Part shown: positions 19,143 to 56,094 of the stretch, piece by piece | Numbering within the stretch: the stretch's first letter is position 1 | Layout of the letters: each line of letters starts with the position of its first letter | Source of the DNA: an uncultured Pelagibacteraceae bacterium | GTDB taxonomy: Bacteria > Pseudomonadota > Alphaproteobacteria > Pelagibacterales > Pelagibacteraceae | Assembly: GCA_902623495.1 (NCBI GenBank) | Contig: CACNTW010000003.1 | Coordinates: 36,240 to 100,239, forward strand | Direction: 5' to 3' | DNA: 64,000 nt | Position numbers and translations under genes: made by a program | Notes under the pieces: model-generated | Databases searched by the model: none | The model's input: only the letters and a program-made list of their open reading frames with translations | What the model was told of the DNA's origin: nothing

Positions 19143-19757
19143 TTAGTATTGTTGAGTAAATGCAATAATTATAGCTATCAAAATTATCACACAAGCTGAA
19201 ATTGTATTTATAATTTTAGGATTAGCTTTAATCCAAACAATTAATTTATTAGCTAAGATTGCATAACCAACCAAAGATAGAAAATCTAATACGACATAAG
19301 TTGTTATTAAAATAATAAACTGAATAATATAATTAGAATTAAAATCTATAAATTGTGGAAATATAAATGGGAAGAACATCCATGCTTTAGGACTTGTTCC
19401 TGCAACTAAAAAACCATCTTTATAAAACGATAAAAAACTTTTATCTAAAATATCTTTTGTATTTATATCTTTAGGTCTCGATTTATAAATATCGTATGCA
19501 AGATATGTTAAATAAGCGATACCTAACCACTTTAAAGTATTTAATATTGTTGGATTGTCAGACAAAAAGGATCCAATAACAAAAATTACTAAAGTTGCCT
19601 GAATAATATTTGCCGATACATCTCCTAACGCAGTCCAAACACATTTTTGAACACCATAATTCATTGAGTAAGAAATAATTACAATTCTAGGCGTTCCAGG
19701 AGTTATGAACATAAAAATTATGATCTGTAAAAAAAGGATAAAATCTAAGGGAAGCAT
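19143..19757 (-). CDS. LysE/RhtB family amino acid exporter
   Basis: ITPGTP, GIAYLTYLA, AGTSPKAWMFF (NPK-equivalent) motifs; six TM segments. Confidence 0.85.
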   Translation of the reverse strand: MLPLDFILFLQIIIFMFITPGTPRIVIISYSMNYGVQKCVWTALGDVSANIIQATLVIFVIGSFLSDNPTILNTLKWLGIAYLTYLAYDIYKSRPKDINTKDILDKSFLSFYKDGFLVAGTSPKAWMFFPFIFPQFIDFNSNYIIQFIILITTYVVLDFLSLVGYAILANKLIVWIKANPKIINTISACVIILIAIIIAFTQQY

Positions 19758-19763
19758 TTTAAG

Positions 19764-19810
19764 GATAGTCCTAAAAAACCGGGAGCTAAAGATGGCTAGA
19801 TAGGACTATC
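19764..19810 (-). promoter_or_regulatory. Structured 5' leader of the LysE/RhtB gene (hairpin occluding the RBS)
   Basis: Perfect 10-bp inverted repeat GATAGTCCTA / TAGGACTATC around a relatively GC-rich 27-nt interior. The 3' arm on the minus strand contains AGGA, 11 nt before the ATG. Confidence 0.6.
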
Positions 19811-19877
19811 TAAAAGTGATAATATCATAGCCTTAAGTATTTGCATTAAAATAATTTTTGAAATTTGTTGAATTTTG

Positions 19878-28066: not shown

Positions 28067-29308
28067 TTAACTAAACCTTATTGAACTGTATGGTTGCAAA
28101 TCTAAATTAGTATTCTCACCTGATATCATTTTAGATATAATTTTTCCTGATATTGCGCCAAGAGTCCAACCTAAATGATGATGACCAAAAGAATAAAAAA
28201 CATTTTTATAGTTTTTTGAAGGCCCTAGAACTGGGAGAAAGTCTGGCAATGTAGGTCTAAAGCCAAGCCACTCATCTTTATGTTCTGGTAGACCATCTAA
28301 CATATCCTTTGCGTTTAATATCAAGTTTTTTATTCTTGATTTAGATGGAGAGTTTTCCAAACCTCCAAATTCCACTGTTCCGACAACACGCAACCCCTGT
28401 TCCATTGGTGTCATTCCAAAACCTCTATTTGCATAAACAATAGGTCTTGAAATTAAATGGTCATAATCTTTGAAGTGAACATGATAGCCTCTTTCAGTAT
28501 CTAAAGGAATATTTTCATGTAATTTATCAGTTAATCTTTTTGAGAATGCTCCACATGCAATTACAAGTTTGTCAAAAATAAATCTTTGCGTTTCTGTTCT
28601 TAAAACAGGTTTTTCTTCGTCAAAATCTATATTTTGAATATTTAATTTTAAAAACTTTCCACCTTTATTTATAAAGTTTTCAAACAATTTTATTAAAATC
28701 TTTCTTGGATTTCTTGCATGTCTAGCGTAATCATAAAAAACTCCACCATGATAAAATGGTTTTAAGTTTGGTTCTAAATCATGAATTTCTTTTTTGTTAA
28801 CCAATTGTTGTTTTACACCTAACTGATCTCTTATTCTAATTTCCAATTCTCTGCTCTTCATATTTTGATCTGTCCAAACATAAAGAATGCCGTTATCTTC
28901 CACTAATCCTTCGAGATCAATTTCATCAAATAATTCATCAAAAGCTGGTAATGATTGATCTAAAATTTGATGCATATTCTTTGCTGTGTGCATCATTTTT
29001 TCTTCTCTACAATTTAAAATAAATCTTGCAAACCAAGGAATCATTTTTGGCACATAATTCCATTTTAATGCTAAGGGGCCTCTTGAACTAATTAACATTG
29101 AGGGAACATCTGCAATTACATCGGGTCTGTTTAAAGGAACAGATGCATAAGGAGAAAAATGTCCAGCATTTCCATATGATGCAGCGCTCCCTGGTTCCTC
29201 TCTATCAAAAAGTGTTACCTGAAAACCTTTTTTTTGTAGAAACAAAGCATTACAAACTCCTTGAATGCCTGCACCAATAATTCCAATTTTTAGATTTTTT
29301 TCTTCCAC
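28067..29308 (-). CDS. FAD-dependent D-amino acid dehydrogenase-like oxidoreductase (DAO family)
   Basis: IGAGIQG, ASYGNAG, ERGYH, WLGFRPTLPDFLP, FGHHHLGWTLG. GTG start. Confidence 0.88.
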   Translation of the reverse strand: MEEKNLKIGIIGAGIQGVCNALFLQKKGFQVTLFDREEPGSAASYGNAGHFSPYASVPLNRPDVIADVPSMLISSRGPLALKWNYVPKMIPWFARFILNCREEKMMHTAKNMHQILDQSLPAFDELFDEIDLEGLVEDNGILYVWTDQNMKSRELEIRIRDQLGVKQQLVNKKEIHDLEPNLKPFYHGGVFYDYARHARNPRKILIKLFENFINKGGKFLKLNIQNIDFDEEKPVLRTETQRFIFDKLVIACGAFSKRLTDKLHENIPLDTERGYHVHFKDYDHLISRPIVYANRGFGMTPMEQGLRVVGTVEFGGLENSPSKSRIKNLILNAKDMLDGLPEHKDEWLGFRPTLPDFLPVLGPSKNYKNVFYSFGHHHLGWTLGAISGKIISKMISGENTNLDLQPYSSIRFS

Positions 29309-29380
29309 ATCTAAAATATATTTTCTTAGAAATACTTATTATATATGATATTTGATCGCGGGTTTATTTAACTTGGATTG

Positions 29381-31531
29381 TTATTTGCCTATAGATATTA
29401 AGGTTAAGTCGTCACTTAGCTTGTTATCCCCAGCAGTATTAATTACTGAATTTGATATATCTGATAACTGTTTGCTAGAATCTGTATTAAAATTTTGTTC
29501 TATAATTTTTAATGAACCATCTATTCCTATTTCTTCACCTGAGCTATTTAAGCTTTCGGATAAACCATCAGTAAAAGCATAAAACCTATTATTTCCTAGC
29601 TTAACTTTGTGACTTTTATAAACAGATTTATCTTTTTGAAGTATTACTCCCATGGGTGGCGAATTACTCTCAAATTGCTCATAATTTCCTGATGATGATC
29701 TAATTATAGCTGGCTGATGACCTCCATTAACCCATCTTAATTCATCAGTCCTCATGTTATATTCTCCCAATATACTAGTAACAAACATGCCTCCAGTTTT
29801 AGTTAAAAATAGATCATTATTCATATGAAACATCATTTCATCTGGATCTACTTGATCTCTAGACATAATCTCAAATAAAGTTGATGCTTTTGCCATTACC
29901 ATTCCGGCATGAATTCCTTTACCTGCAACATCTGCAATAATAAAATAAACACTATCATTGTGAGGATAAAAGCTGAAGAAATCTCCAGAAACTTCTCTAG
30001 CTGCAATATTTATTCCATGTACAGGATAATTTTCTAAATTCCTCTTTGGTAGAAAATTTTCTTGAACTTTCACAGCAAGTTTTACTTCATTTGATATTCT
30101 GTCTCTCCATACTTTCTTTTCAGCTTCACTAGTTTCTAGTTTGCTCATCAATCTATTATAATAAAGTCCAATTACACCACCTGCAGTAAATGGATCTTGA
30201 GGTCCTCTAATTGTTAAATCTCCAGACTCAGATTGTTTTTCTAATATTGTAATTAAATCATGTTCTACAGAAGTTGCATTGTGTTCAGCAATATTCAGAC
30301 CTAGCTCTTCATGTAAAGGACTTACTCTTAAAGGATAGAAGTAATTTAAAATTTTCAATAAAATATATGATCCAAAAAAAGAGAATGCGCCAATAGACAC
30401 AATTCCAATAAACTGTGCTTTAATTTGCTCTAATCTAGTTAATCCAGTTCCAAGTATTTCAAGATCACTAAATAATCCAACTGCTATAGTGCCCCAAACA
30501 CCTGCTGCCAAATGAACTGGTACAGCTCCAACAACATCATCTATTTCAAATTTATTTAAAAATTCATTAACAAAAATTGCTACCACTGCACCAATAATAC
30601 CTACGAAAATTGATGTAACAGAAGTCATCGAATTACATCCTGCTGTAATTGCAACCAATCCTGCAAGTGGTCCAAGAATTACATAGTAAGGATCTGGTTT
30701 TTTAAATAATGCAAATGAAATTCCAAGACCTGTTAATAATCCAAAAGAAGCAGCTAGAAATGTATTTATTAAAATTAGTGGAACTGCCTCATCCATAGCT
30801 CCGTTACTTCCGCCATTAAATCCAAACCAACCAAACCACAAAATTAAGGTTCCCAGAACTGCAAGTGGAAAACTTGACCCTGTAAACTTTCCTTTATTAG
30901 CATCTGAATATTTTCCAATTCTTGGACCCAAAATTAATACTGCTGATAATGCAATCCATCCACCTACTGAATGAACAATGGTGCTTCCTGCGAAATCAAC
31001 AAATCCAATATCTGTCAGCCATCCTGTAGTTTTAACTTGTCCTGTAACAGCAAGTAATTGTCTCGTTGCATCAATGTTATTTAAATAACTAGATGACCAA
31101 GCCCAATGACCAACTATTGGATAAATTATTCCTGTAGCAATAATTGTTATGATTAAATAGCCATTAAACTTCATTCTTTCTGCAACAGCGCCCGATACAA
31201 TAGTTGCTGCAGTTGCAACAAACATTGCCTGAAACACAAAGTAAGTCATGTATTCAGCTCGATCAGTTTTAAAGAAAAATAAATCGGTTCCAAAATAACC
31301 ATTAAAGCTCTTACCAAACATCAAACCGAAGCCAAATAACCAAAAGATAACAACTGCTAATCCAAAATCAGCTGCGTTTTTTAATGCTACGTTAATACTA
31401 TTTTTATGCCTTGATAGTCCTGTTTCCATACACATGAAACCTGCCTGCATTATGAAAACTAAAATTGCGCAGTCTATAACCCAAAGGGTATCAACAAATG
31501 ATTTTACTGATTCCAGATCTACATTCTCCAT
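29381..31531 (-). CDS. Ammonium transporter (Amt) fused via a HAMP-like/coiled linker to a SpoIIE/PP2C phosphatase
   Basis: Amt motifs: MQAGF, FQAMF, SGAVAER, DFAGSTIVHSVGG, LWFGWFGFNGGS, DDVVGAVPVH. Linker GDLTIRGPQDPF...YYNRL. SpoIIE motifs: VSGDFF, ADVAGKG, FTDGLSE, DDLTL. Confidence 0.92.
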   Translation of the reverse strand: MENVDLESVKSFVDTLWVIDCAILVFIMQAGFMCMETGLSRHKNSINVALKNAADFGLAVVIFWLFGFGLMFGKSFNGYFGTDLFFFKTDRAEYMTYFVFQAMFVATAATIVSGAVAERMKFNGYLIITIIATGIIYPIVGHWAWSSSYLNNIDATRQLLAVTGQVKTTGWLTDIGFVDFAGSTIVHSVGGWIALSAVLILGPRIGKYSDANKGKFTGSSFPLAVLGTLILWFGWFGFNGGSNGAMDEAVPLILINTFLAASFGLLTGLGISFALFKKPDPYYVILGPLAGLVAITAGCNSMTSVTSIFVGIIGAVVAIFVNEFLNKFEIDDVVGAVPVHLAAGVWGTIAVGLFSDLEILGTGLTRLEQIKAQFIGIVSIGAFSFFGSYILLKILNYFYPLRVSPLHEELGLNIAEHNATSVEHDLITILEKQSESGDLTIRGPQDPFTAGGVIGLYYNRLMSKLETSEAEKKVWRDRISNEVKLAVKVQENFLPKRNLENYPVHGINIAAREVSGDFFSFYPHNDSVYFIIADVAGKGIHAGMVMAKASTLFEIMSRDQVDPDEMMFHMNNDLFLTKTGGMFVTSILGEYNMRTDELRWVNGGHQPAIIRSSSGNYEQFESNSPPMGVILQKDKSVYKSHKVKLGNNRFYAFTDGLSESLNSSGEEIGIDGSLKIIEQNFNTDSSKQLSDISNSVINTAGDNKLSDDLTLISIGK

Positions 31532-31598
31532 TTCATCCTCTTAAGGTTATATTTATTTTAAAGTTCATAATAGAAAGTAGATGGTCAAAATAGGTTAG

Positions 31599-31844
31599 TT
31601 AATCTTTTTTTTTCCAGATAAAATAAAACAAATAGGGACAAAGTGCTGGAACAACCCCAAACCAAAACCACTCATCCCATCTAAAGCTTTTATCCATCAT
31701 TGGGCTTCTTAAACCATTCCACCAAGTTAAATAACCAATCATTATTATCCACGCTAAACTGGCAGTTGCATAAATTTTAAAGTTTTTTGAAAGGTCTCCT
31801 GAGAAGACCAATTTAACTTGTTCAATATATTTATTGAAGTCCAT
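31599..31844 (-). CDS. Small hypothetical membrane protein (81 aa, two TM, Trp-rich)
   Basis: Two hydrophobic helices; co-oriented between pilE and the Amt fusion. Confidence 0.7.
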   Translation of the reverse strand: MDFNKYIEQVKLVFSGDLSKNFKIYATASLAWIIMIGYLTWWNGLRSPMMDKSFRWDEWFWFGVVPALCPYLFYFIWKKKD

Positions 31845-31853
31845 TTTAATAAT

Positions 31854-32312
31854 TTAACAGTTAGTGTTCTTATCGAGAACTGATTTATGAGTATAAGTCA
31901 TAATGCATGGTTTTGATGTTTCTTGTTCCTCAGTTTTAATTTTGTATCCATCTGAAAAAGCTTCAACACAAAATTCATAGCCTACCTTCTCAACTATAAC
32001 ATCTGCTTCACCTAATAATTCTTTCTCAATTTCATTTGATGGATCTGATTTTCCTGTGATATTACAAGTTTTGGTAAAGAAATAAGTATCGTTATCTGAA
32101 TAATACTCTGACTGAGCTAATGATATTTGCATCATTATATTTTCTGCAGATTTTTTTTTAGATGCTCCAACGTAACCATTGTAACTAACAATTCCTATAG
32201 CTGATATTATTCCTAGTATTGCTACTACCACCAAAAGCTCAATGAGTGAGAACCCAGAGCTTTTAGTAGTCATAAAAGAACTTTTCAAAATAAAAGTTTT
32301 ACTTTTATTCAA
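31854..32312 (-). CDS. pilE: Type IV minor pilin (PilE-like)
   Basis: Class III signal G|FSLIELLVVVAILGII with E5; KSAENIMMQISLAQSEYY helix typical of PilE; C-terminal Cys residues. Confidence 0.8.
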   Translation of the reverse strand: MNKSKTFILKSSFMTTKSSGFSLIELLVVVAILGIISAIGIVSYNGYVGASKKKSAENIMMQISLAQSEYYSDNDTYFFTKTCNITGKSDPSNEIEKELLGEADVIVEKVGYEFCVEAFSDGYKIKTEEQETSKPCIMTYTHKSVLDKNTNC

Positions 32313-32796
32313 TAAGAAGAGTATCGTTTAGTGGATCTTCTCCACTAGCAGTACATGTTGAAACAGTAACCTGACTAGCAGTACTTTTTACATTTGTTCT
32401 GCCTTGCGTATCTGTTGTACAATTAGCTTTTGCATCAAATTTTGCTGCATCAAAAATTGCTGATCCAGAACCACCAGTTGTTCCATATGAGTTTTTAAAT
32501 TCAGATAATGCTAAAGCTGCTGCTTTACTTACTTCTCCAGCAGATGTTCTGCTGCTACAAGTTAATTTATCAGCACCAGCTTTATCTTTCATTGCAGAAC
32601 TCTCTCCAATATTACATTTTTGTAATTCTGCAGCTATGTATTTAACAACTGTTGCATGGTTAGACTTTGCTCCAGACTTTTTCGCACTTGATGTATATCC
32701 AGAATAAGCAACTACTCCAACAGCAGCAAGAATACCGATAATGGCTACAACAACTAATAATTCTATAAGTGTAAAACCTTTATTATTTTTTTTCAT
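32305..32796 (-). CDS. pilA: Type IVa pilin, probable major pilin
   Basis: MKKNNKG|FTLIELLVVVAIIGILAAVGVVAY. RBS AGGA upstream of ATG 32796 (ORF-track start 32862 is too long). First gene behind a dedicated promoter region. Confidence 0.8.
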   Translation of the reverse strand: MKKNNKGFTLIELLVVVAIIGILAAVGVVAYSGYTSSAKKSGAKSNHATVVKYIAAELQKCNIGESSAMKDKAGADKLTCSSRTSAGEVSKAAALALSEFKNSYGTTGGSGSAIFDAAKFDAKANCTTDTQGRTNVKSTASQVTVSTCTASGEDPLNDTLLIE

Positions 32797-32884
32797 AATT
32801 TGTGTTCCTATTTTAAATAAAAAATATGTATATACATAATAATTATATCTCTTGAAAGTCAATATCTATATATGAAATCTATTC

Positions 32885-32919
32885 AAAATGGGTCATTTTT
32901 GTTGATTTCACAGTGAAAT
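32885..32919. promoter_or_regulatory. Two adjacent inverted repeats in the divergent pilA / STAS promoter region
   Basis: AAAATG-GGT-CATTTT (32885-32899) and ATTTCAC-A-GTGAAAT (32905-32919). Confidence 0.35.
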
Positions 32920-32938
32920 TTAATAAATATCAATATTT

Positions 32939-33238
32939 ATGTCATACAAAGTTACAGAAGAAGGCGGAATATCAATTGTTCACCTTGATGGTGAAATTGA
33001 TATGGACGTAACAGAAAAAGCAAAAGAAATTATAATGCCTTTAATAGAGGCAAAAAAAGAAGTTCATCTAAATTTAAAAGAAGTTCAGTATATGGACTCA
33101 TCAGGCATCTCAGTTTTGATTGAAAGTCATCAAAAAGCAACCGAACTTGGAACAAAAGTTATTTTAAAAGATATTAGCAAGTCAGTTTTGAAAGTTATTA
33201 TGATGGCAAAACTAGAACAAATTTTAAACTTAGGATAA
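32939..33238 (+). CDS. STAS-domain anti-sigma factor antagonist (RsbV/SpoIIAA-like)
   Basis: LDGEID and LNLKEVQYMDSSGISVLI with the conserved phospho-acceptor Ser in DSSG. Confidence 0.92.
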   Translation: MSYKVTEEGGISIVHLDGEIDMDVTEKAKEIIMPLIEAKKEVHLNLKEVQYMDSSGISVLIESHQKATELGTKVILKDISKSVLKVIMMAKLEQILNLG

Positions 33239-33241
33239 ATA

Positions 33242-33670
33242 ATGAATAATCTTGCTCAAATATCAGAACAGAGAGATTTTGTCGTAAGTTCATCTAGCCT
33301 TAAAGATGTAAGAAGTTTTTCAAGAGAAGTTTTTGAAAAAGTAAATATTGAACAAGATTTAAAAGACGAATTAGTACTAGCGATAGCAGAAGCAGCCCAG
33401 AATATTGTTAAACATGCTTATCAAGGTGAGGATACTGAGGATAAAATGGAGATAAAAATTTCTTTAGCAAATGGTAATTTAGAAATTGGATTTTTTGATA
33501 AAGGAAGACCAGTTGAAAAAGATAAAATTCGACATAGAAAAATTGATGATATTAAACCAGGCGGACTTGGAACTTTTTTTATTCAACAAATAATGGATGC
33601 AGTAGTATTTAAAGAAGGTGAAAAGCCTTGGATCAACCATTTAATTTTGTCAAAAAAAATAAATTATTGA
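33242..33670 (+). CDS. RsbW/SpoIIAB-like anti-sigma factor Ser/Thr kinase (HATPase_c_2)
   Basis: N-box LAIAEAAQNIVKHAY, G1 DKG, G2 KPGGLGTFFIQQIMD. Confidence 0.9.
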   Translation: MNNLAQISEQRDFVVSSSSLKDVRSFSREVFEKVNIEQDLKDELVLAIAEAAQNIVKHAYQGEDTEDKMEIKISLANGNLEIGFFDKGRPVEKDKIRHRKIDDIKPGGLGTFFIQQIMDAVVFKEGEKPWINHLILSKKINY

Positions 33671-34905
33671 CCTATAATTGCACCAACATTAAAGATCGGT
33701 GAATACATCGCTATCATCAAACCACCAATCATAGTACCCATAAATACTATCATGATGGGTTCAATTAAACTCGACATATTATCTACAGCTGTATCAAACT
33801 CTTCTTCATAGTAAGCCGACACTGATGTAAACATTTCATCCAAGTTACCAGTTTGTTCACCAACTGATATAAGCTGACTAAAAGTCGGAGGGAACACTGG
33901 TTCTTTTAAAAATAATTTTGTTAGAGTATCACCAGAGAAAACACCTTTTTTTACATTTTCCAAAGCTTGAGTAACCACATCATTATTACTTACTTGTTTT
34001 GCAATTTCTATACTCTCAAGCAAGTTTACACCTGCAGAACTAAGATTACCCATAATCAGGGATATTCTTGCAATTAATGATTTTAAAATCATATCTCCAA
34101 ATACAGGCATTTTTAAAACTCTATTGTGCCATTTATATCTTACAGCTGGTATTTTTGTTGTTGTATATTTAAATAAAGCAAAACCAATTATACAAACTAT
34201 AGCTAAAGTCAAACCGCCTGCTCCTCTCATAAAATTACTTGCATTCATAATAACCGCTGTCGGAGTTGGTAAAGCTACTCCCATACCCTCATACATTTCG
34301 GCAAATATTGGAACAACTTTTATTAACATGAAAACCATAACTGTTATAGCAACAACAAACATCACTACGGGATAAGTTAATGCACTTTTGATTTTCTTTT
34401 TTACTTTCTCTCTTTTCTCAAGTGAGTCTACCAATTTAAGTAAAAAAACATCTAACTTACCACTCGCTTCTCCTGCCTTGATTAAGTTTATATAAATATT
34501 ATCAAAAATTTTAGGATACTTTTCAAAACATTTGGATAAAGTTACACCCCCCTCTAAACTTTTTCTTATGTCCTCAATGATTTCTTTCATTGTTGGGTGT
34601 TCAATTTGATCACGTAACATTGATAGAACATTCAAAATTGGCAGGCCTGCTTTAACCATTGTGGCAAACTGTTTTGAGAAAATCATCACATCTTGGGGTG
34701 ATACTTTTTTCTTTCCGAATGAAAAACTGCTTTTTTTACCTTTTTCTTTTGCTGCTTTTTTCTTTTTAGTTTTGACTAAATTTGTGATTATTATCTTTTG
34801 TTCTTTTAACTTATAAGACGCCTCTTCTTGATTAAGAGCTTCTATTTCTCCCTCTATATATTTTCCAGCGGAAATACCTTTGTATGTAAATGTTTCAGAG
34901 GACAT
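33664..34905 (-). CDS. pilC: Type IV pilus inner membrane platform protein
   Basis: Two T2SSF domains; FATMVKAGLPI, AGEASGKLD, ALTYP, VGEQTGNLD, LIEPIMI. Confidence 0.95.
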   Translation of the reverse strand: MSSETFTYKGISAGKYIEGEIEALNQEEASYKLKEQKIIITNLVKTKKKKAAKEKGKKSSFSFGKKKVSPQDVMIFSKQFATMVKAGLPILNVLSMLRDQIEHPTMKEIIEDIRKSLEGGVTLSKCFEKYPKIFDNIYINLIKAGEASGKLDVFLLKLVDSLEKREKVKKKIKSALTYPVVMFVVAITVMVFMLIKVVPIFAEMYEGMGVALPTPTAVIMNASNFMRGAGGLTLAIVCIIGFALFKYTTTKIPAVRYKWHNRVLKMPVFGDMILKSLIARISLIMGNLSSAGVNLLESIEIAKQVSNNDVVTQALENVKKGVFSGDTLTKLFLKEPVFPPTFSQLISVGEQTGNLDEMFTSVSAYYEEEFDTAVDNMSSLIEPIMIVFMGTMIGGLMIAMYSPIFNVGAIIGQ

Positions 34906-34908
34906 TTA

Positions 34909-36657
34909 TTAATCCATTGAAAGAACTCTATCAAACTCCCTGAAATTTAAATCTCCAGTTAATATAAGCTCTCTTCCCATATCTTGCATCGTTCTAAAGC
35001 CTTCATTAGAAGCAATTTCTTTTAGCTCTGGTGTCGTGGCTTTTCTTAAAATTGCTTCTTTAATAGGCTTAGTAACATTTAAAATTTCATAAATACCCAT
35101 TCGACCTTTGTATCCGCTATCTTTACATTTTGCACAACCCTTTCCTTTTTGAACTTTTGCTCTGGAAGCCTGTTCTACTGTAAAACCAAGATCAGCTAAA
35201 GCTTTTGGAGTAATGTCATTATCTGGTTCTCTACACTCTGTACAAGTTTTTCTTGCTAATCTTTGTGCCAAAACCAAACTTACAGCTGCACTAATTAAAT
35301 AATCCGGTGTTCCCATGTTCTGTAATCTTGTGATTGTGCTTGGCGCATCATTTGTGTGAAGTGTACTAAAAACTAAGTGTCCTGTTAGTGCTGCTTTTAA
35401 TCCAATATCAACTGTTTCTTTATCCCTCATCTCTCCAACTAGAATTATCTCGGGGTCCTGTCTTAAAAATGATCTTAAAGCTGTTGCAAAATTAAAACCA
35501 ATATCATCTTTAATTTGAACTTGTCCCACACCATCAAGTTCATACTCAACTGGATCTTCAGCAGTTAATATATTTAAATGGGGTTGAGAAACTTCCTTTA
35601 AAATACTGTATAGTGTTGTTGTCTTTCCTGAACCGGTCGGACCTGTTACAAGTACTAATCCTTGTGTACCATGAATTGCTTTCCTCAAATTTTTTAAATC
35701 TGTTTCTTCAAAATTTAATTGCTCTAAACTTATATCTCCTGCATCTTTATTTAGAACCCTCATTACAATTCTTTCATTTGTAGCTGTTGGCAAAATAGAA
35801 AGACGAAGATCAACAACTTTTCCATCAATTTTAAATGGTATGGCGCCATCTTGTGGAAGTCTTCTCTCTGCAATGTCTAATTTTCCCATAATTTTAAATC
35901 TTGTTACAACTGCACCATAATTAGAGTGCAAAAATTTTTTAAAATGCTCTTGCTCTGTAAGGATACCATCTAATCTATATCTTACTCTTGATGAGAACCT
36001 ATATGGTTCAATATGAATATCAGATACACCAGCTTTAATGGCGTCAGCAACTACAGCTGTACTAAATTTTATAACCTCAGACTCATTTTCAATTGCTTCT
36101 ATATCTTCTTCAGGTTGACTTTCTAAAACTTCTGCTTGTTCATCAACATCATAATCAAACGTTTTAGTTTTTTCAGCTTGGGTTTGTCTAATATCTGAAA
36201 TAGTTTTTTCACCATCTGCTAAAAGTTTATCTACAAAATTTGAGATATCTGAAACTTTTGCGGCATGTAATTCTATATCCATTTTTGTGATGGTTCTTAA
36301 GTTTCTCATCAAACTTAATTTTGAGATATCCGAAATTGCTATATGCAGAACTTTTCCTTCAATTTTAAAAGGTGCTATAAAATTCATATTTATATAATTG
36401 GAGGGAAGCACAGCTTTTAGCTCTTCGGTCGCTTCGATTGTTGATAAATCTACAACATCTAAAGACTGATCATGAACTAATAAATCTAATATTTTTTGTT
36501 CATCTGTTAAATTTAATTCAAACACAGCATCTAGTTGTGATTTATTTCCGTCACTAGAAATTTTTTTTATTTCAGCTAAGTCTTTTCCTGAAATAATATC
36601 TTGATCTATCAAGATATTAATTAAATTAATCTCAGACTCTCTACTTATATTAATCAT
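34909..36657 (-). CDS. pilB: Type IV pilus extension ATPase
   Basis: LDIAERRLPQDG, GPTGSGKTT, AEDPVE, LRQDPEIILVGEMRD, TLHTND, tetra-Cys Zn motif (CTEC...CAKC). Confidence 0.93.
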   Translation of the reverse strand: MINISRESEINLINILIDQDIISGKDLAEIKKISSDGNKSQLDAVFELNLTDEQKILDLLVHDQSLDVVDLSTIEATEELKAVLPSNYINMNFIAPFKIEGKVLHIAISDISKLSLMRNLRTITKMDIELHAAKVSDISNFVDKLLADGEKTISDIRQTQAEKTKTFDYDVDEQAEVLESQPEEDIEAIENESEVIKFSTAVVADAIKAGVSDIHIEPYRFSSRVRYRLDGILTEQEHFKKFLHSNYGAVVTRFKIMGKLDIAERRLPQDGAIPFKIDGKVVDLRLSILPTATNERIVMRVLNKDAGDISLEQLNFEETDLKNLRKAIHGTQGLVLVTGPTGSGKTTTLYSILKEVSQPHLNILTAEDPVEYELDGVGQVQIKDDIGFNFATALRSFLRQDPEIILVGEMRDKETVDIGLKAALTGHLVFSTLHTNDAPSTITRLQNMGTPDYLISAAVSLVLAQRLARKTCTECREPDNDITPKALADLGFTVEQASRAKVQKGKGCAKCKDSGYKGRMGIYEILNVTKPIKEAILRKATTPELKEIASNEGFRTMQDMGRELILTGDLNFREFDRVLSMD

Positions 36658-38222
36658 TATAAAATTCTTGGCGCTATAAATACCAATAATTCATCAAGGT
36701 TATCAGAGTTTGCCTTACCTTTAAAGAGATTACCAATCACAGGTACATTTCCAATACCAGGAGTTTGGTTTTTACTCTGAGAAAGCACGTTTTTCTTAAT
36801 ACCACCAATCACAACAATATCTCCATCTGCAACTAGTAATTTTGTTACAATTTCCATTTTATTGATAGGTGGCTCATCACCTCCGGCTGATCTGTTAGGA
36901 GTATCGTTATTTACTTTAATAGTTAATAGAACGTTTCCATCTCCAATAATGCTTGGAGTGACCTCTAATTTCAATGCAGCTTCTTTAAAAGAAGTAGAGG
37001 TTGTACCATCAGACGTAGTTTGATAAGGAATTTCCTCACCTTGCGTTACAGTTGCTAGCTGGTTATCCAAAGTAAATACTTTTGGATTTGATATTGTTTT
37101 ACCCATTCCCATACTCTCTAATGCTGTTATTTCAGCTTTAAGAACTCCTGTGGGTGTTCGTCTCAAAATTCCGATACCACTTGTAGCGCCAGTAACTGGA
37201 AAATTAGCTATGCTATCTGTTGCTGATCCAAGCCCTGCGGCAGTATCTAAATCAGTTCCAAATGCACTTCCACTACTAGTTCCTGCTGTACCCCCTGATA
37301 TTTTTCCACCTCTATTATAATAGCCGCCTATCCTAGTACCGAGCGCTCTTTCAAAATCTGAGTTAGCTTCGACAATGAATGCTTCAATTAAAACTTGTTT
37401 GGTTCTTATATCTATCTCTTTCACAACTTTATCAACCACATCTAAGTCTTTTTCTTTACCTCTTACTATTATTGACCTTGTAGTTATTTCTTCTGTTATT
37501 TGAATTGGTGTAAAGGAACTATCTCCACCTGCTGATTGTGTAAATAATTCCTCAATTGTCTGTTTAGCTTGAGACGGTGTTATATAATAAAGTCTAAATA
37601 TTTCAGAATATATTGGTTCAACGCTATCTTCCAATTCTACTTTTCTCTTAACTGCCTGAGCTCTTTCAGATTTATAAGTTTCTTGAGCAGTTAAAGTTTC
37701 TGGTGAGTGTATTCTTATTAAATTACTTGCTACATCAACATCTGAAGCAAAATTTTTCATATCTAGTAATGCCTGAAAAGCTTTATCCCAAGGAACATCT
37801 ATTAATTCTGCTGATATTGCACCAGCTACCTCGTCACCAACAAGAATATTTATTTCTCCAATTTTACCCATTAATTCCATTGTTTCTTTGTAATCTAAGT
37901 TTTTAAATTTTAACGTAACTCTTTGTTTCAATAATGGATAATCATCTGGAATGATTAAATAATTTCTTTGCGATTCAGATGATATTTTTTTTCTTTTGCC
38001 TAATTTTCTAGAGTCACCTTCAATAGGTTTTGGTCCCATCTCTAAAGTTTTTGCAACTTCTGACTTTCCAGATGCAACTATGTTTTTATCCTTTATTAAC
38101 GGGGTATTATGCTTAAAGGGTTTGTTGTATTTTTTTCCAAATTGTGAATTTGGACCACAGGCGCTAATAATAAGTACAATAGTAAATAGTAAAACTATGT
38201 TAAAAAACTTTTTAATAATCAT
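36657..38222 (-). CDS. pilQ: Type IV pilus secretin (short, probably lipoprotein)
   Basis: VPWDKAF (N0), QVLIEAFIVEA, ISNPKVFTLDNQLATVTQGEEIPY, LKLEVTP, PGIGNVPVIGNLFK, LVFIAPRIL. Likely start MIIKK at 38222 with lipobox ISA-C. Confidence 0.93.
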   Translation of the reverse strand: MIIKKFFNIVLLFTIVLIISACGPNSQFGKKYNKPFKHNTPLIKDKNIVASGKSEVAKTLEMGPKPIEGDSRKLGKRKKISSESQRNYLIIPDDYPLLKQRVTLKFKNLDYKETMELMGKIGEINILVGDEVAGAISAELIDVPWDKAFQALLDMKNFASDVDVASNLIRIHSPETLTAQETYKSERAQAVKRKVELEDSVEPIYSEIFRLYYITPSQAKQTIEELFTQSAGGDSSFTPIQITEEITTRSIIVRGKEKDLDVVDKVVKEIDIRTKQVLIEAFIVEANSDFERALGTRIGGYYNRGGKISGGTAGTSSGSAFGTDLDTAAGLGSATDSIANFPVTGATSGIGILRRTPTGVLKAEITALESMGMGKTISNPKVFTLDNQLATVTQGEEIPYQTTSDGTTSTSFKEAALKLEVTPSIIGDGNVLLTIKVNNDTPNRSAGGDEPPINKMEIVTKLLVADGDIVVIGGIKKNVLSQSKNQTPGIGNVPVIGNLFKGKANSDNLDELLVFIAPRIL

Positions 38223-38661
38223 CTGCCTCTCTGACTTGATTATTAAAATCAATAATCATAAATTTTCCATCTTCTTTTTTAAAAATTGCTTCAGTCAATC
38301 TTAGATCCACAAGTTGAATTTTTCCTAAAAATTGACCAAGAGTTAAAGTCAAAACTTCACCTCCAGAATTTACTATTGAAATATAACTGTGATCCTTTCC
38401 AGATATAAGACCAGCTAATTTAAAATTATATAAACTAAGTTCGTTCTCTTGTTCATCAGCAGGTATATTTCCGGACATTGAACTTGTACCTTCATTTCCT
38501 GCAAAAGGATCATTTAAAGGAACTTCCTCTTCATTTTCTAATTCTTTAGCTATTTCATTAACTTTATCTAAAACTTCTTGCTTTTGATCGTGACTGTCAG
38601 CTAGTGCTAACGAATTAATTAATGTAAATAATAAAATAAATATTATTTTAAAAAAATTCAT
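38212..38661 (-). CDS. pilP: PilP-like pilus assembly protein
   Basis: Position between pilO and pilQ; NDPF and LxxYxFKLAGLI...GQFLG pattern of the PilP domain; no lipobox Cys. Confidence 0.65.
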   Translation of the reverse strand: MNFFKIIFILLFTLINSLALADSHDQKQEVLDKVNEIAKELENEEEVPLNDPFAGNEGTSSMSGNIPADEQENELSLYNFKLAGLISGKDHSYISIVNSGGEVLTLTLGQFLGKIQLVDLRLTEAIFKKEDGKFMIIDFNNQVREADDY

Positions 38662-39286
38662 TTGGCATTCCTACAATTGTTAATTCACCTTTGGCTACTA
38701 TCGCTCCAGTTGAATCATTTTGTACTACACTTATCGTCTCTTTGTCAAAATTTAACATTTTTTTTTGTTTAGATACTGCTCTTTTAAACTTAATATATCC
38801 AAGGAAATTACCCTTTATTTCGTAATCTACTGGAATTTTATAATAAGAAACCATTTCCATTGTTATATTGTTTTCAGACTGTTGTGCATTTCCAGCTTTT
38901 AAAACTGGTTTAGGTTTTTTTTTCTGTATTTTTGAGATAATTAATCCATTAACAGCTGCGTGCTTGCTCAAACTTTCATACAAACCTTCAACTTCAGCTT
39001 TTGAGTGAAACAAAGTTGAGCTAGCTTCAAATTCAGGTTTTCTTTTTTTTATATTTTTTTTTAAAGTAATTATGTCATTTTCAAACTTATTGATTTCATT
39101 TTCTTTTAAAATTTTATCATCAAATATAGCTCTTCTTTCTTTAACCATTGGACTAAGAATGACATAATAAATAATCAAAAATAAAATTACAGCCCCTACT
39201 CCTATTCCAAATTTAATTAATGTTTTTTTGTCGATGCCTGATAGCTTTTGCTTCAAGTCATCCATTGTCATATTTTTTAAATCCAT
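38648..39286 (-). CDS. pilO: Type IVa pilus alignment protein PilO
   Basis: One TM helix, coiled coil, then YYKIPVDYEIKGNFLGYIKF PilO core. Start at 39286 overlaps the pilM stop (TAATG). Confidence 0.85.
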   Translation of the reverse strand: MDLKNMTMDDLKQKLSGIDKKTLIKFGIGVGAVILFLIIYYVILSPMVKERRAIFDDKILKENEINKFENDIITLKKNIKKRKPEFEASSTLFHSKAEVEGLYESLSKHAAVNGLIISKIQKKKPKPVLKAGNAQQSENNITMEMVSYYKIPVDYEIKGNFLGYIKFKRAVSKQKKMLNFDKETISVVQNDSTGAIVAKGELTIVGMPNEFF

Positions 39287-41001
39287 TATGCACTCTCCAA
39301 AATACAAGCTATTTTAAAGCCCTTCATTGTTTGAGAGCTCTGTTGATCATTAGGCAAGGTCATGCTTGCTAAAGATGCTTGTGAAATTAATTTTTTGTTA
39401 TTTAAATTGCTTATTAACTTTAAAATGTCTTGGTCACTAAAAGCTGTACCTTCTATAACTATTAAGTCTGAACCATTGTAATCAATTGAGCTAAATTTAA
39501 CTCTTTTTGGCACTGCTGAAGCAATTTGAGCTAAAACTCTAAAGCTAATAGTCTTGTTGGATTTTATTGACTGGCTAAGCTCAAGTGCTTTATCCATTAA
39601 ATTTTTTTCTTTGAGATATTTATTTCTCTCTAAAGTCTTTAGCTCATGAGTTTGAATAACTTCCTCATATCCAGCTATCTTTTTATTTAAATCTGTAATT
39701 TGCCAAAATGAAAATCCAAAAAGAACAACATATATTGCAACAACTATTCCAGCAATTCCTTTAAATGCAAAATTTGAAAAAGCTTTAGCTTTTTTTTGTG
39801 CAATCATATTTTCTCTGTTTGGAAGAAGGTTGATATTTTTTACTGCAGTTACAAATTTATAATAACCAAATACATCTAACTTTCTAAAAGCTAATCCCAT
39901 AACTGTTGAAAAATAAGATGGATTACTTAATTTAGTATCATTTTCAATTTGTGCAGGTATCTTAATTCCATCAAATGGATTAAAAAGATTATAGCCAGTA
40001 TTAACCATATTTTTCCTAAAGCTTGCTAAATAATCTTCTACGTTTGGCAGATTAGATGTTACTTTTAAATTCCTAATTCTTTTTTCATATTTTGTTTCAA
40101 AATCCTGAACTGCCTGTTTAACCTGGGTCATATATCTTCTGACCAAAGCATCCATTTCTTCTTGATTATTACTTTCAGATAAAGTTTTTCTATCTTGAGC
40201 TCTAATAAATATATCAGTTATGATTGGATTATTTTCATAAAGTATCATTACATAATTTTCATCAAGTCCAAATTCTAAAACTGCTGTTAAATTTGAATCT
40301 TCAATTGATCCAGCTATTTGATTAATTTGGTCTACTGCAGATTTTAATGCAAAACATTTGACATCAATAATTACAGCGTTTAATCCACCTTTTTTAATAA
40401 TTGCTGTATAACTATTAATGTCTGAAAGTTTTGAGGCAACAAACAAGATATCCATCGTGTTAGCTTTTTCATCTTTATTTATTACCTGATGAAATATTGA
40501 ATACTCTGCTAAGTTATCTGTTAGTTGAACTAAATTTTCCCAAAGTGAATCTGTATCAATAGCTTTTTTCAATTCTTCTTCAGTCATTAAAGGCGCAGTT
40601 ACGACCCTAATGATGGCGCTTGTAACTGGAATTGCTATTGCAGCATTGGTTGTTGATACTTTTGATTTTAATAAAGCTAACTTTAGCTCTTCAGCAATTT
40701 TGTCTTGATTTTCTAAAACTGTTCCACCATCAGGAACTCCTTCAAATTTATGAACATAAAATTTATCTAAGACCCATTGGTTTGCTTTATTGCTGGAAAC
40801 TTGTGCAAGTCTAATTTCGTTTGGTGTCAATTCAACACCTAAAATTTCCTCACCTTTTATTGAGGATTTCCCTAATCTATTTTTTAATAGTTTGCCAAAA
40901 AAACTCTCTTTCTTTTTGCCTGCATCTGGCTTTGGCACAGGTTTATCTGGCGCACCATCTTTACTCTTCTTTTTAAAAAGATTTGCAAAAGGATTTTTCA
41001 T
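39286..41001 (-). CDS. pilM: Fused PilM-PilN protein
   Basis: N-terminal actin-like PilM (ILGVELTPNEIRL, AIAIP, AVLEFG, VMGLAFR), then the PilN signature INLLP (39820-39834), a TM helix, coiled coil and PilN core (VPKRVKFSSI...IEGTA). Confidence 0.88.
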   Translation of the reverse strand: MKNPFANLFKKKSKDGAPDKPVPKPDAGKKKESFFGKLLKNRLGKSSIKGEEILGVELTPNEIRLAQVSSNKANQWVLDKFYVHKFEGVPDGGTVLENQDKIAEELKLALLKSKVSTTNAAIAIPVTSAIIRVVTAPLMTEEELKKAIDTDSLWENLVQLTDNLAEYSIFHQVINKDEKANTMDILFVASKLSDINSYTAIIKKGGLNAVIIDVKCFALKSAVDQINQIAGSIEDSNLTAVLEFGLDENYVMILYENNPIITDIFIRAQDRKTLSESNNQEEMDALVRRYMTQVKQAVQDFETKYEKRIRNLKVTSNLPNVEDYLASFRKNMVNTGYNLFNPFDGIKIPAQIENDTKLSNPSYFSTVMGLAFRKLDVFGYYKFVTAVKNINLLPNRENMIAQKKAKAFSNFAFKGIAGIVVAIYVVLFGFSFWQITDLNKKIAGYEEVIQTHELKTLERNKYLKEKNLMDKALELSQSIKSNKTISFRVLAQIASAVPKRVKFSSIDYNGSDLIVIEGTAFSDQDILKLISNLNNKKLISQASLASMTLPNDQQSSQTMKGFKIACILESA

Positions 41002-41127: not shown

Positions 41128-42144
41128 ATGTTTGAAAAATTAGAAGAACTTGCAAAAAATAATAAGAAAATTTCTGATTTTCACATAAGAGCTGGCGCTC
41201 CACTTGCTTACCGACAAACTGGTGAGATTATTAAGGTTCAAGAAGTAATGGTTACGGCTCAAGATATAAAAGATTTATTATCAATGAACTGTAATGAACA
41301 TGAATTGAATAAATTTGATAAAACTCACGAATTAGATACTTCGGTAACATTAAGTGGATTAAGATTTAGAGCAAACTTTTATAAAACAATTAAAGGCCCG
41401 GCATGCGTTTGTAGAAGAGTGGAAAGTAAAATTCCTGAAATGGATCAATTTAATTTACCTCAGTCTCTTTATGATATTGTCGACTTTCACAAAGGACTAG
41501 TTTTAGTTACAGGCCCAACTGGTTCAGGTAAATCAACTACGCTTGCAGCTATTGTTAATGAAATAAATAAAACAAGAACTGCAAATATTATTACTGTAGA
41601 AGACCCCGTTGAATTTATTCATCAGGATAACAAAAGTATTGTTTCTCATAGAGAAGTTGGAAAACAAACTGAAACATTTGCTGCAGCTTTAAAAGCAGCT
41701 CTTAGAGAAGATCCAGACGTAATTTTAGTTGGAGAAATGAGAGACTTAGAAACTATCAGTCTTGCATTGACTGCTGCTGAAACTGGACATCTAGTTTTTG
41801 GAACTTTACATACTAGTGGTGCTCCAAGTACAATTAATAGAATTATCGATGTTTTTCCTCCTGAGCAACAAGAACAAATTAGAGCTCAAATTTCGACGTC
41901 TCTTAAAATGGTAGTTACTCAAAGGTTATTAAAAACAAGAGATGGTGCTGGTAGAGTTGGTGCTTTTGAAATTATGAAATGTACTGCGCCAATACAAAAC
42001 TTAATTAGAGAAGCTAAAATTCATCAAATTCCTAGTATCATGCAAACTGCAGTAAGAGATGGAATGATAACTATGGAAAAATCTTTAGAGGAATTAGCTA
42101 AAGCAGGGAAAATAGATCCAGGTGCTGCAAGATCAGAACATTAA
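41128..42144 (+). CDS. pilT: Type IV pilus retraction ATPase
   Basis: SDFHI, GPTGSGKSTT, ITVEDPVE, ALREDPDVILVGEMRD, TLHTSGA, PIQNLIRE (AIRNLIRE motif). Confidence 0.95.
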   Translation: MFEKLEELAKNNKKISDFHIRAGAPLAYRQTGEIIKVQEVMVTAQDIKDLLSMNCNEHELNKFDKTHELDTSVTLSGLRFRANFYKTIKGPACVCRRVESKIPEMDQFNLPQSLYDIVDFHKGLVLVTGPTGSGKSTTLAAIVNEINKTRTANIITVEDPVEFIHQDNKSIVSHREVGKQTETFAAALKAALREDPDVILVGEMRDLETISLALTAAETGHLVFGTLHTSGAPSTINRIIDVFPPEQQEQIRAQISTSLKMVVTQRLLKTRDGAGRVGAFEIMKCTAPIQNLIREAKIHQIPSIMQTAVRDGMITMEKSLEELAKAGKIDPGAARSEH

Positions 42145-55329: not shown

Positions 55330-56094
55330 TTAATAAAAAATTATAGATTGAATATTACTTTCAAAAATTAAATATATCAATGTACCAATAATGATGTAGG
55401 GGCCAAATGGGATCTGAGATGAAAGTTTTTTTGATTTTTTCATTAGACTAGGGATCACAAATAATAAAGCTATTATAGACGATAAAAATATCACAAAAGG
55501 TATTGAGATCCATCCAAACCAGAATCCGATTGCTGATAAAAGTTTAGCATCACCTAAACCCATTCCCTCTTTGTTTCTTAATTGTTTGTAAAAAAAAATT
55601 ATAGACCAAATAATTAAATAACCAAAAATTCCTCCAATTAAAGAATTTATATAGTTTGGGAAAATTGGATTTAAATTTGGGTCAAAAGATTTTATAAAAC
55701 CAATTACCATTAAAGAAAAAGTTAATACATTTGGAATGATGTAATGTTTTAGGTCAATAAAGAAAATTATAATAAAAGATAGACCTAAAATTAAAAAAAG
55801 TAAGGTAGTTAAGCTTATACCAAATAAGTAATAAACAGATAAAAAATAAATAATAGTAATAAACTCGATTAATAAATACTGAGGTGAAATTTTTTTTCTA
55901 CATCTTCTGCATTTGCCGTTTAAAAATAGAAATGAAATTATCGGAATATTATCTTTCCAAGTAATTAATTTTTTACACTTTGGACAAAATGATCTTCCTG
56001 ATACAACCCCTTTACCCATAGGGAGTCTATAAATACAAACATTTGCAAAACTACCCCAAAGTCCCCCGAGAATAATTACAAATATTAAATCCAC
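55330..56094 (-). CDS. pilD: Prepilin peptidase / N-methyltransferase
   Basis: GSFANVCIYRLP, CPKC...CRRC Zn motif, IDLKHY and GMGLGDAKL catalytic Asp motifs. GTG start. Confidence 0.95.
   Translation of the reverse strand: MDLIFVIILGGLWGSFANVCIYRLPMGKGVVSGRSFCPKCKKLITWKDNIPIISFLFLNGKCRRCRKKISPQYLLIEFITIIYFLSVYYLFGISLTTLLFLILGLSFIIIFFIDLKHYIIPNVLTFSLMVIGFIKSFDPNLNPIFPNYINSLIGGIFGYLIIWSIIFFYKQLRNKEGMGLGDAKLLSAIGFWFGWISIPFVIFLSSIIALLFVIPSLMKKSKKLSSQIPFGPYIIIGTLIYLIFESNIQSIIFY

Follow-up and report, generated by a model that had tools for sequence, protein, structure and literature searches.

Whether an ammonium transporter (Amt) that carries a protein phosphatase at its C terminus moves ammonium or senses it, and to which partner such a phosphatase would answer, is the question raised by a gene in a 64,000-nucleotide stretch of DNA (the window) from an uncultured Pelagibacteraceae bacterium (NCBI GenBank assembly GCA_902623495.1, contig CACNTW010000003.1, forward-strand positions 36,240 to 100,239). 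SAR11, the group concerned, is without the usual P-II/NtrBC nitrogen circuitry and little is known of its nutrient sensing. The original prediction, made from the sequence, had read the gene as an Amt-SpoIIE fusion, a third class of Amt sensor and a possible P-II-independent route of nitrogen sensing. We find that the Amt half carries the complete set of residues that marks ammonium receptors, and that the gene lies beside a STAS/RsbW pair inside a type IV pilus gene cluster, which suggests a different role for it in the cell.

The open reading frame on the minus strand is intact, running over 716 amino acids (protein P0001) without internal stops from an ATG start preceded by a ribosome-binding site (AAGAGGA). 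Both halves of the predicted fusion are borne out on this one frame: Pfam Ammonium_transp (PF00909) matches residues 17-420 (E-value 6.6e-111, 371 bits against a cut-off of 23.2), joined by the NCBIfam amt model TIGR00836 (392.5 bits, cut-off 343.3), and Pfam SpoIIE (PF07228) matches residues 526-714 (E-value 9.7e-34, 117 bits, cut-off 25). The AlphaFold2 model (mean predicted local distance difference test score 79.7) places, in order, eleven long membrane helices, a helix at residues 422-436, a loop, a 44-residue helix at residues 450-493 that in the monomer model continues directly into the PP2C domain, and the PP2C beta-sandwich. More than 8000 matches to the fusion were found in the protein database, and the best 120 are full length with both domains, at least 90% identical and spread over many independent contigs; some of these 120 carry the name 'ammonium transporter [Candidatus Pelagibacter sp.]'. 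An assembly artefact, which had been named as one of the outcomes that would undo the prediction, is ruled out because thousands of independent full-length copies exist. The 67-bp gap upstream of the gene holds only the ribosome-binding site, and Rfam at its gathering threshold gave no riboswitch or other RNA element near the gene. In a promoter and terminator consensus scan of positions 29000-33300, promoter-like sites were no commoner than in shuffled sequence, and the scan does not inform on operon structure.

All the pore motifs listed in the original prediction could be located (FQAMF 100-104, WFGWFGF 232-238, DFAG 179-182, IVH 185-187, PVH 338-340 and GGS 240-242), and alignment to Sd-Amt1, the Amt-HAMP-GGDEF receptor of Shewanella denitrificans, assigns the Phe gate to F104/F238, the twin His to H187/H340 and the vestibule Trp/Ser to W145/S242. 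A sequence search of solved structures returned Sd-Amt1 as the best match (E-value 1.4e-117), with the alignment extending through the linker to query residue 481, and Ks-Amt5 of Ca. Kuenenia stuttgartiensis as the next relative (3.7e-84), with bona fide transporters at 1e-43 or worse. A fold search gave 46% identity and a template modelling (TM) score of 0.91 for Sd-Amt1 in both its ON and its OFF state, 40% identity for Ks-Amt5 and 24-27% for Af-Amt1 and AmtB.

In the definition of Pfluger et al. (2024, PMC11152129), the receptor class is marked by the residues that bind NH4+ at two lateral sites, called N1 and N2, together with a Lys/Tyr switch. We rebuilt the sequences of Sd-Amt1, Ks-Amt5 and Af-Amt1 from alignments, confirmed their numbering against PMC11152129 and aligned them with the SAR11 proteins, using as reference the Sd-Amt1 residues Q22, F25, E29, K44, N45, D48, T104, S107 and Y119. 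The N1/N2 and switch set is complete in the fusion (Q29, F32, E36, K51, N52, D55, F56, T110, S113 and Y125), as it is in every one of the ten further fused SAR11 copies examined. In the two Amts that this genome carries without a fusion, core SAR11 types of 433 aa and 466/473 aa, the Glu, Lys and Asn are kept, with Leu at the N2 aspartate (Asp48) and Phe at the switch tyrosine (Tyr119). Judged by these residues, the Amt module is of the ammonium-receptor type, and from the identity of its ligands with those of Sd-Amt1 and Ks-Amt5 the fusion would be expected to bind ammonium.

An intact Phe gate, twin His and Trp/Ser would equally suit a bifunctional transceptor, that is, a transporter that also signals, or one whose phosphatase tunes its own transport in the manner of the C-terminal phosphorylation of plant AMT1 and fungal Mep2. 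This explanation gains from the loss of the exit-narrowing Asn269 of Sd-Amt1 and from the proven transporters found in 'cluster 2', whose members bear the N1/N2 signature (PMC11152129). However, Ks-Amt5 keeps all pore motifs and yet its NH4+ translocation is incomplete (PMC11152129), the closest solved relatives of the fusion are two receptors, with kinship extending to the linker, and the genome already has two unfused Amts of core type. A dedicated STAS/RsbW pair, described below, co-occurs with the PP2C domain. Bacterial Amts are not known to have a phospho-regulated C-terminal region, which also speaks against self-regulated transport. We regard a transceptor as unlikely.

The likeness to Sd-Amt1 continues into the linker, where query residues 416-481 align to residues 399-464 of the Sd-Amt1 chain. 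The original prediction had called this segment HAMP-like; its helical shape and its homology to the Sd-Amt1 linker stand, but Pfam HAMP (PF00672) matched neither the whole protein nor the linker alone at E-values up to 10. A true HAMP domain is without profile support, and we keep the label 'HAMP-like' only because of the homology to Sd-Amt1 and the predicted helix-loop-long-helix shape. In the phosphatase half, the predicted metal-binding motifs were found at SGDF 515-518, ADV 533-535, TDG 654-656 and DDL 707-709, and the aspartates of the GD, DxxG, DG and DD motifs (D517, D534, D655, D707 and D708) do not vary in a set of seven Amt-SpoIIE proteins that share 38-55% identity. The best structural match of the domain in Foldseek is SiaA-PP2C (6k4e_B, TM score 0.85, root-mean-square deviation 2.6), and its sequence matches are RssB, SpoIIE and Rv1364c; SiaA is a member of the Pseudomonas SiaABCD switch. 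The PP2C module looks catalytically competent on these grounds.

A candidate partner for this phosphatase is encoded nearby. A STAS/RsbW pair lies 1.4 kb from the fusion gene on the opposite strand, between the pilin genes and pilC-pilB-pilQ, and the best matches of the two proteins among solved structures, RsbV and RsbW, come from one complex, 6m36. In the alignment with RsbV, the YMDSSG motif of the STAS protein falls on YMDSTG, and Ser54 matches the phospho-serine of RsbV and SpoIIAA, which makes Ser54 the phospho-acceptor position, and the RsbW-like kinase keeps its N, G1 and G2 boxes. A tblastn search of the genome found one STAS gene, one RsbW-like gene and two PP2C genes, the fusion and a GAF-SpoIIE phosphatase, and we propose the STAS protein as the probable substrate. 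Only two Sigma70_r2 genes are present in the genome, encoding proteins of 623 aa and 299 aa that we take, from their sizes, to be RpoD and RpoH; no alternative sigma factor that could serve as kinase partner was found there, and the output of the switch is therefore not expected to be an alternative sigma factor. Given its location within the cluster of pilus genes, the switch most likely has as its output a step in type IV pilus expression or activity.

To place the locus in a wider context, we compared 121 Pelagibacterales species genomes. The full-length fusion is present in 11 of them, and in 8 of these 11 it adjoins pilins, STAS/RsbW and pilC, a synteny that extends to a genome of a different genus (G117) whose proteins are only 40-50% identical. 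The order of pilins, STAS-RsbW and pilC is constant with or without the fusion. The slot of the fusion itself is variable, being empty in one genome (G049), where the 81-aa small hydrophobic protein is still present, and occupied by a CHASE2-SpoIIE gene in another (G105). In G105 the 695-aa CHASE2-SpoIIE phosphatase (locus L032, contig G105:C11, 2365-4452) takes the place that the fusion has in the window, with the same DAO oxidoreductase gene as its neighbour, and REC-SpoIIE versions (537-541 aa) occur in other SAR11 genomes. The sensor module is thus swapped between strains, with the PP2C output kept.

The phosphatase and the kinase also occur together. SpoIIE-domain genes are found in 34 of the 121 genomes and RsbW-like genes in exactly the same 34, a set that includes all 11 fusion genomes and carries pilC throughout. 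Among Pelagibacteraceae, RsbW-like genes are present in 34 of 36 pilC-positive and in none of 25 pilC-negative genomes (Fisher p = 4e-15, phylogeny not corrected for), SpoIIE genes are likewise missing from the 25 pilC-negative genomes, and the RsbW-like gene lies 0.4-9.5 kb from pilC in 33 of 34 cases. In G117, which is 98% complete, the Amt fusion is the single PP2C and the sole STAS/RsbW pair lies 2 kb away; the fusion is therefore the only phosphatase available to the switch in that genome.

These observations bear on the possibility that the phosphatase has some other substrate, or that the pocket senses another small amine such as methylammonium, so that proximity to the pilus genes would be a matter of island hitch-hiking. 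Some fusion copies do lie away from the pilus cluster, homologues outside SAR11 have other neighbourhoods, and methylated amines are oxidised by SAR11 (PMC3870248). Set against this are the perfect co-occurrence of SpoIIE and RsbW (34/34 genomes), the lack of any other PP2C for the STAS/RsbW pair of G117, the existence of SpoIIE-HATPase_c_2 fusions on Amt receptors, and the identity of the N1/N2 ligands with the residues seen to bind NH4+ in two crystal structures. Such an alternative appears decidedly improbable to us.

Several further observations concern copy number and decay of these genes. One genome of 1,308,759 bp (G041) has two tandem fusion copies at approximately 60 kb, and the window fusion is 83% identical to one of them; we take G041 to be Ca. 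Pelagibacter ubique HTCC1062 and its tandem copies to be SAR11_0049/SAR11_0050. G041 and G089 are the two genomes with two tandem Amt-PP2C copies adjoining pilins, and in both of them two tandem STAS genes precede the RsbW-like kinase (L020, 16490-17064, and L021, 15074-15648, respectively), which may mean one STAS protein per phosphatase; in G069 and G095, however, two fusions go with a single STAS gene. In G095, a 44-residue remnant that is 95% identical to residues 673-716 of the fusion (L029, G095:C4, 7269-7400) stands beside a divergent paralog and looks like the recombination scar of a paralog insertion. The pilC gene of G089 (G089:C1:970097-971325) contains four TGA and three TAA stops, and those of G025 and G107 contain one or two TAA stops. 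The pilus machinery of some strains in which the STAS/RsbW pair persists is probably in decay. A short 297-aa SpoIIE-only phosphatase is encoded in G041 away from the fusion copies (G041:C1:1165087-1165674). It is probably SAR11_1218, 'phosphatase, sigB regulator', a gene of hypervariable region 4 with flanking pilin genes (PMC2217521).

The absence of P-II, which the original prediction had given as reported for Pelagibacter, is borne out for the window genome: no P-II gene was found in this 93% complete assembly, and the control search detected P-II in 13 of 14 reference genomes. As P-II is missing from most SAR11 as well (PMC3870248), and as ammonium would be the natural cue for a sensor of this sort, the fusion might be thought to replace P-II as a global nitrogen-status sensor governing ammonium uptake and glutamine synthetase/GOGAT. 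Its distribution argues otherwise, because it is found in 11/121 Pelagibacterales genomes and in 6/64 gMED single-cell genomes (PMC11796062). It occupies a variable slot, its conserved neighbourhood is without nitrogen-assimilation genes, and its partners are locked to the pilus cluster. Since the fusion is an accessory island gene in the context of a pilus switch, with pilus-linked STAS/RsbW genes around it, a general P-II-independent nitrogen route is unlikely, and a true P-II replacement would be very surprising.

We favour instead a reading that stands, on balance, a little on the probable side, namely that the fusion would serve as the input, gated by ammonium, of a partner switch that works without a sigma factor and is tied to type IV pili. 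Periplasmic NH4+ would enter the Amt pore and bind the lateral N2 and N1 sites (E36, N52, D55, T110 and S113), sites that NH4+ has been shown to fill in Sd-Amt1 and Ks-Amt5. A conformational change may then travel along the pair of HAMP-like helices and on through the long helix 450-493, with the linker helices pairing and becoming rigid. This would switch on the PP2C domain, by analogy with the HAMP pairing of Sd-Amt1, itself a structure prediction, and with RsbU, where a dimeric helical linker controls the PP2C dimer (PMC12143880). The phosphatase would remove the phosphate from Ser54 of the STAS protein and so oppose the RsbW-like kinase, a pairing and a direction of regulation that we infer. 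Unphosphorylated STAS or the freed kinase could act on a type IV pilus-related target that is not a sigma factor, and the GAF-PP2C protein encoded at the other end of the cluster may supply a second, cytoplasmic input. The pilus output is the weakest link of this mechanism.

A number of points weigh against this proposal. The fusion has Leu286 in place of Asn269, so closure of the pore cannot be judged from the alignment, and as this position varies even between the two proven receptors (Thr in Ks-Amt5) and is Ser in Af-Amt1, transport is neither affirmed nor excluded by the sequence. The N1/N2 signature is also present in plant AMT1 transporters, which again does not exclude transport (PMC11152129). 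The linker is without a Pfam HAMP match, and an Amt trimer driving a PP2C dimer would imply a break of symmetry of a kind that, for Sd-Amt1, is a prediction only. The co-occurrence counts are phylogenetically non-independent, 4 of the 11 fusion genomes have at least one copy away from the pilus cluster (G043a, G071, G009 and G047), and the fusion may be linked to the pilus genes through joint transfer in a single flexible island and not through function. Within 8 kb of the Leptospiraceae homologue described below, neither STAS nor RsbW is encoded.

In its more general form the proposal is tentative: in pilus-bearing SAR11, an Amt-receptor phosphatase might read external ammonium, set the phosphorylation of the STAS protein and tune type IV pilus activity (DNA uptake or attachment), with different strains plugging Amt, CHASE2, GAF or REC phosphatases into one switch. 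If true, nutrient status would be tied to type IV pili in SAR11, the most abundant bacterium of the ocean, by a direct circuit from nutrient to pilus, and the fusion would be the first Amt receptor with a protein-phosphatase output. The characterised Amt receptors are two only, with kinase and cyclase outputs. The gene family is abundant in ocean metagenomes, and a phosphatase-output receptor with a STAS substrate and an RsbW-like kinase would give a reconstitutable three-protein ammonium-sensing assay.

The fusion had been described as exclusive to SAR11 in a marine single-cell dataset (PMC11796062); this is not upheld in wider databases. A protein library clustered at 50% contains Amt-SpoIIE proteins at 38-43% identity, among them proteins from a Leptospiraceae metagenome-assembled genome (MAG; MDX1961127.1) and a SAR324 MAG (MBF0287101.1), and longer variants carry PAS, GAF, HK-REC and HATPase_c_2 domains (Amt-SpoIIE-HATPase_c_2, Amt-PAS-SpoIIE-HATPase_c_2 and Amt-HK-REC-SpoIIE). 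The Amt-SpoIIE-HATPase_c_2 architecture joins the phosphatase to an RsbW-type kinase in one chain and therefore offers Rosetta-stone support for a partner switch. Around the SAR324 homologue, STAS is encoded at a distance of 5 kb, together with an NtrC-type regulator and an ATP-binding cassette (ABC) transporter for branched-chain amino acids. In the SAR324 MAGs at loci L039/L040 (2479-6401), a STAS gene, a cyclic nucleotide monophosphate-binding histidine kinase and a sigma-54-dependent response regulator lie within 5 kb, with the ABC transporter on the opposite flank. Compared with SAR11, these surroundings look more nitrogen-related, and the neighbourhoods in SAR324 and Leptospiraceae do not settle the partner question.

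The features of the locus are listed in Table 1. Within the pilus cluster, pilM and pilN form a single 571-aa open reading frame with PilM_2 and PilN domains and so represent a natural fusion; a 2026 SAR11 preprint lists PilM-PilN as a fusion protein too. A 672-aa open reading frame at 49634-51652 (+), after a PilY1-like gene in the same cluster, has no Pfam match. The sole Rfam match in the window is an rhtB small RNA motif (RF01814) at 19752-19828 (-), with 77.6 bits against a gathering score of 55.

Table 1. Features of the Amt-PP2C fusion gene and of the surrounding pilus cluster, in window coordinates
Feature	Coordinates	Strand	Evidence or remark
Amt-linker-PP2C fusion gene	29381..31531	-	intact open reading frame; Pfam Ammonium_transp + SpoIIE; AlphaFold2 model
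Amt receptor-type membrane domain, aa 17-420, 11 transmembrane helices	30272..31483	-	Pfam, alignments, AlphaFold2
Helical linker, aa 421-493	30053..30271	-	Sd-Amt1 alignment and predicted secondary structure
SpoIIE/RsbU-type PP2C phosphatase domain, aa 494-716	29384..30052	-	Pfam, motifs, Foldseek
Small hydrophobic protein, 81 aa, conserved	31599..31844	-	between pilins and fusion gene
Type IV pilins (two genes, of 152 aa and 185 aa)	31854..32862	-	N_methyl motif; between fusion gene and STAS/RsbW genes
STAS anti-sigma-antagonist-like protein, 99 aa	32939..33238	+	Pfam STAS, TIGR00377, best PDB match RsbV 6m36_B
RsbW-like serine kinase/anti-sigma-type protein, 142 aa, HATPase_c_2	33242..33670	+	best PDB match RsbW 6m36_A
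pilC	33664-34905	-	
pilB	34909-36657	-	
pilQ	36657-38252	-	
pilO-like	38648-39307	-	
pilM-pilN fusion	39286-41001	-	
pilT	41128-42144	+	
Prepilin peptidase pilD	55330..56094	-	adjoins GAF-PP2C gene
GAF-SpoIIE phosphatase, 429 aa	56263..57552	+	far end of pilus cluster, adjoins pilD

Parts of this locus have been met before. In 2007, two tandem 'ammonium transporters' were reported in hypervariable region 1 of HTCC1062, beside pilin genes (PMC2217521), and in 2010 a SpoIIE domain was noted on these two Amts (PMC2944026). In 2013, the proteins SAR11_0049/0050 of HTCC1062 were detected by proteomics, with levels unchanged under N limitation (PMC3870248), which fits a constitutive sensor. In 2025, 'Amt-GI5' was described from SAR11 gMED, a 716-aa protein for which an AlphaFold model was given and which has a PPM domain and a HAMP-like linker; it forms a one-gene island of ~2.3 kb, in genomes with core Amts of 433 and 466 aa; its authors concluded that it 'points towards an ammonium sensor', and a partner was not found by them (PMC11796062). 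The 2026 preprint, from the same group, shows an anti-sigma antagonist and an RsbW kinase as parts of the pilus locus of SAR11 and again interprets the fused Amt as sensory; in the passages searched, the two are not connected. The fusion and the idea of an ammonium sensor are thus already published (PMC2944026, PMC11796062 and the 2026 preprint); of the 'third class of Amt sensor' in the original prediction, the receptor type holds, with N1/N2 complete and Sd-Amt1 and Ks-Amt5 the closest solved relatives, and the novelty does not. What is added here is the N1/N2 test with the unfused paralogs as internal control, candidates for the substrate and the kinase, the exact match in phyletic distribution, the exchange of sensor modules between strains and the occurrence of the fusion outside SAR11.

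The nearest counterpart is Amt-GI5 itself, which agrees with the window protein in its 716 aa, its C-terminal PPM domain, its HAMP-like linker and the 433/466-aa core Amts of the genome, and the two are very probably the same gene of the same family. Beyond that account, the window contig holds a second PP2C, the STAS protein and the RsbW-like kinase, with their co-occurrence documented. Among the characterised receptors, Sd-Amt1 (PDB 8qj3, 8qj4 and 8qpf; PMC11152129) has a 46% identical Amt domain in which all N1/N2 and switch residues are common to both proteins, and a homologous helical linker up to the start of the output domain. The two differ in the output, a diguanylate cyclase in Sd-Amt1 and a PP2C protein phosphatase in the fusion, in the exit residue (Asn269 against Leu) and in a 12-residue periplasmic loop insertion of the fusion (residues 147-167). 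Ks-Amt5 (PDB 6eu6; PMC5764959), whose Amt domain is 40% identical, has the same set of N1/N2 ligands, a histidine kinase as output and a linker unlike that of the fusion.

On the output side, the window system shares with RsbU/RsbV/RsbW-type switches a PP2C phosphatase, a single-domain STAS protein with a phospho-serine position and an RsbW-like kinase. It differs from them in that the input domain is a membrane Amt receptor and that an alternative sigma candidate is absent from the genome, which places it with the non-canonical, sigma-independent switches. Relatives of that kind are Vibrio SypE/SypA, Pseudomonas SiaABCD and Nostoc HmpU/V/W, the last of which is required for type IV pilus-dependent motility and acts on it with no sigma target known (PMC6495340, PMC8256260). 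In the window, in contrast to RsbU/V/W-type switches, the module has its physical place between pilA and pilC.

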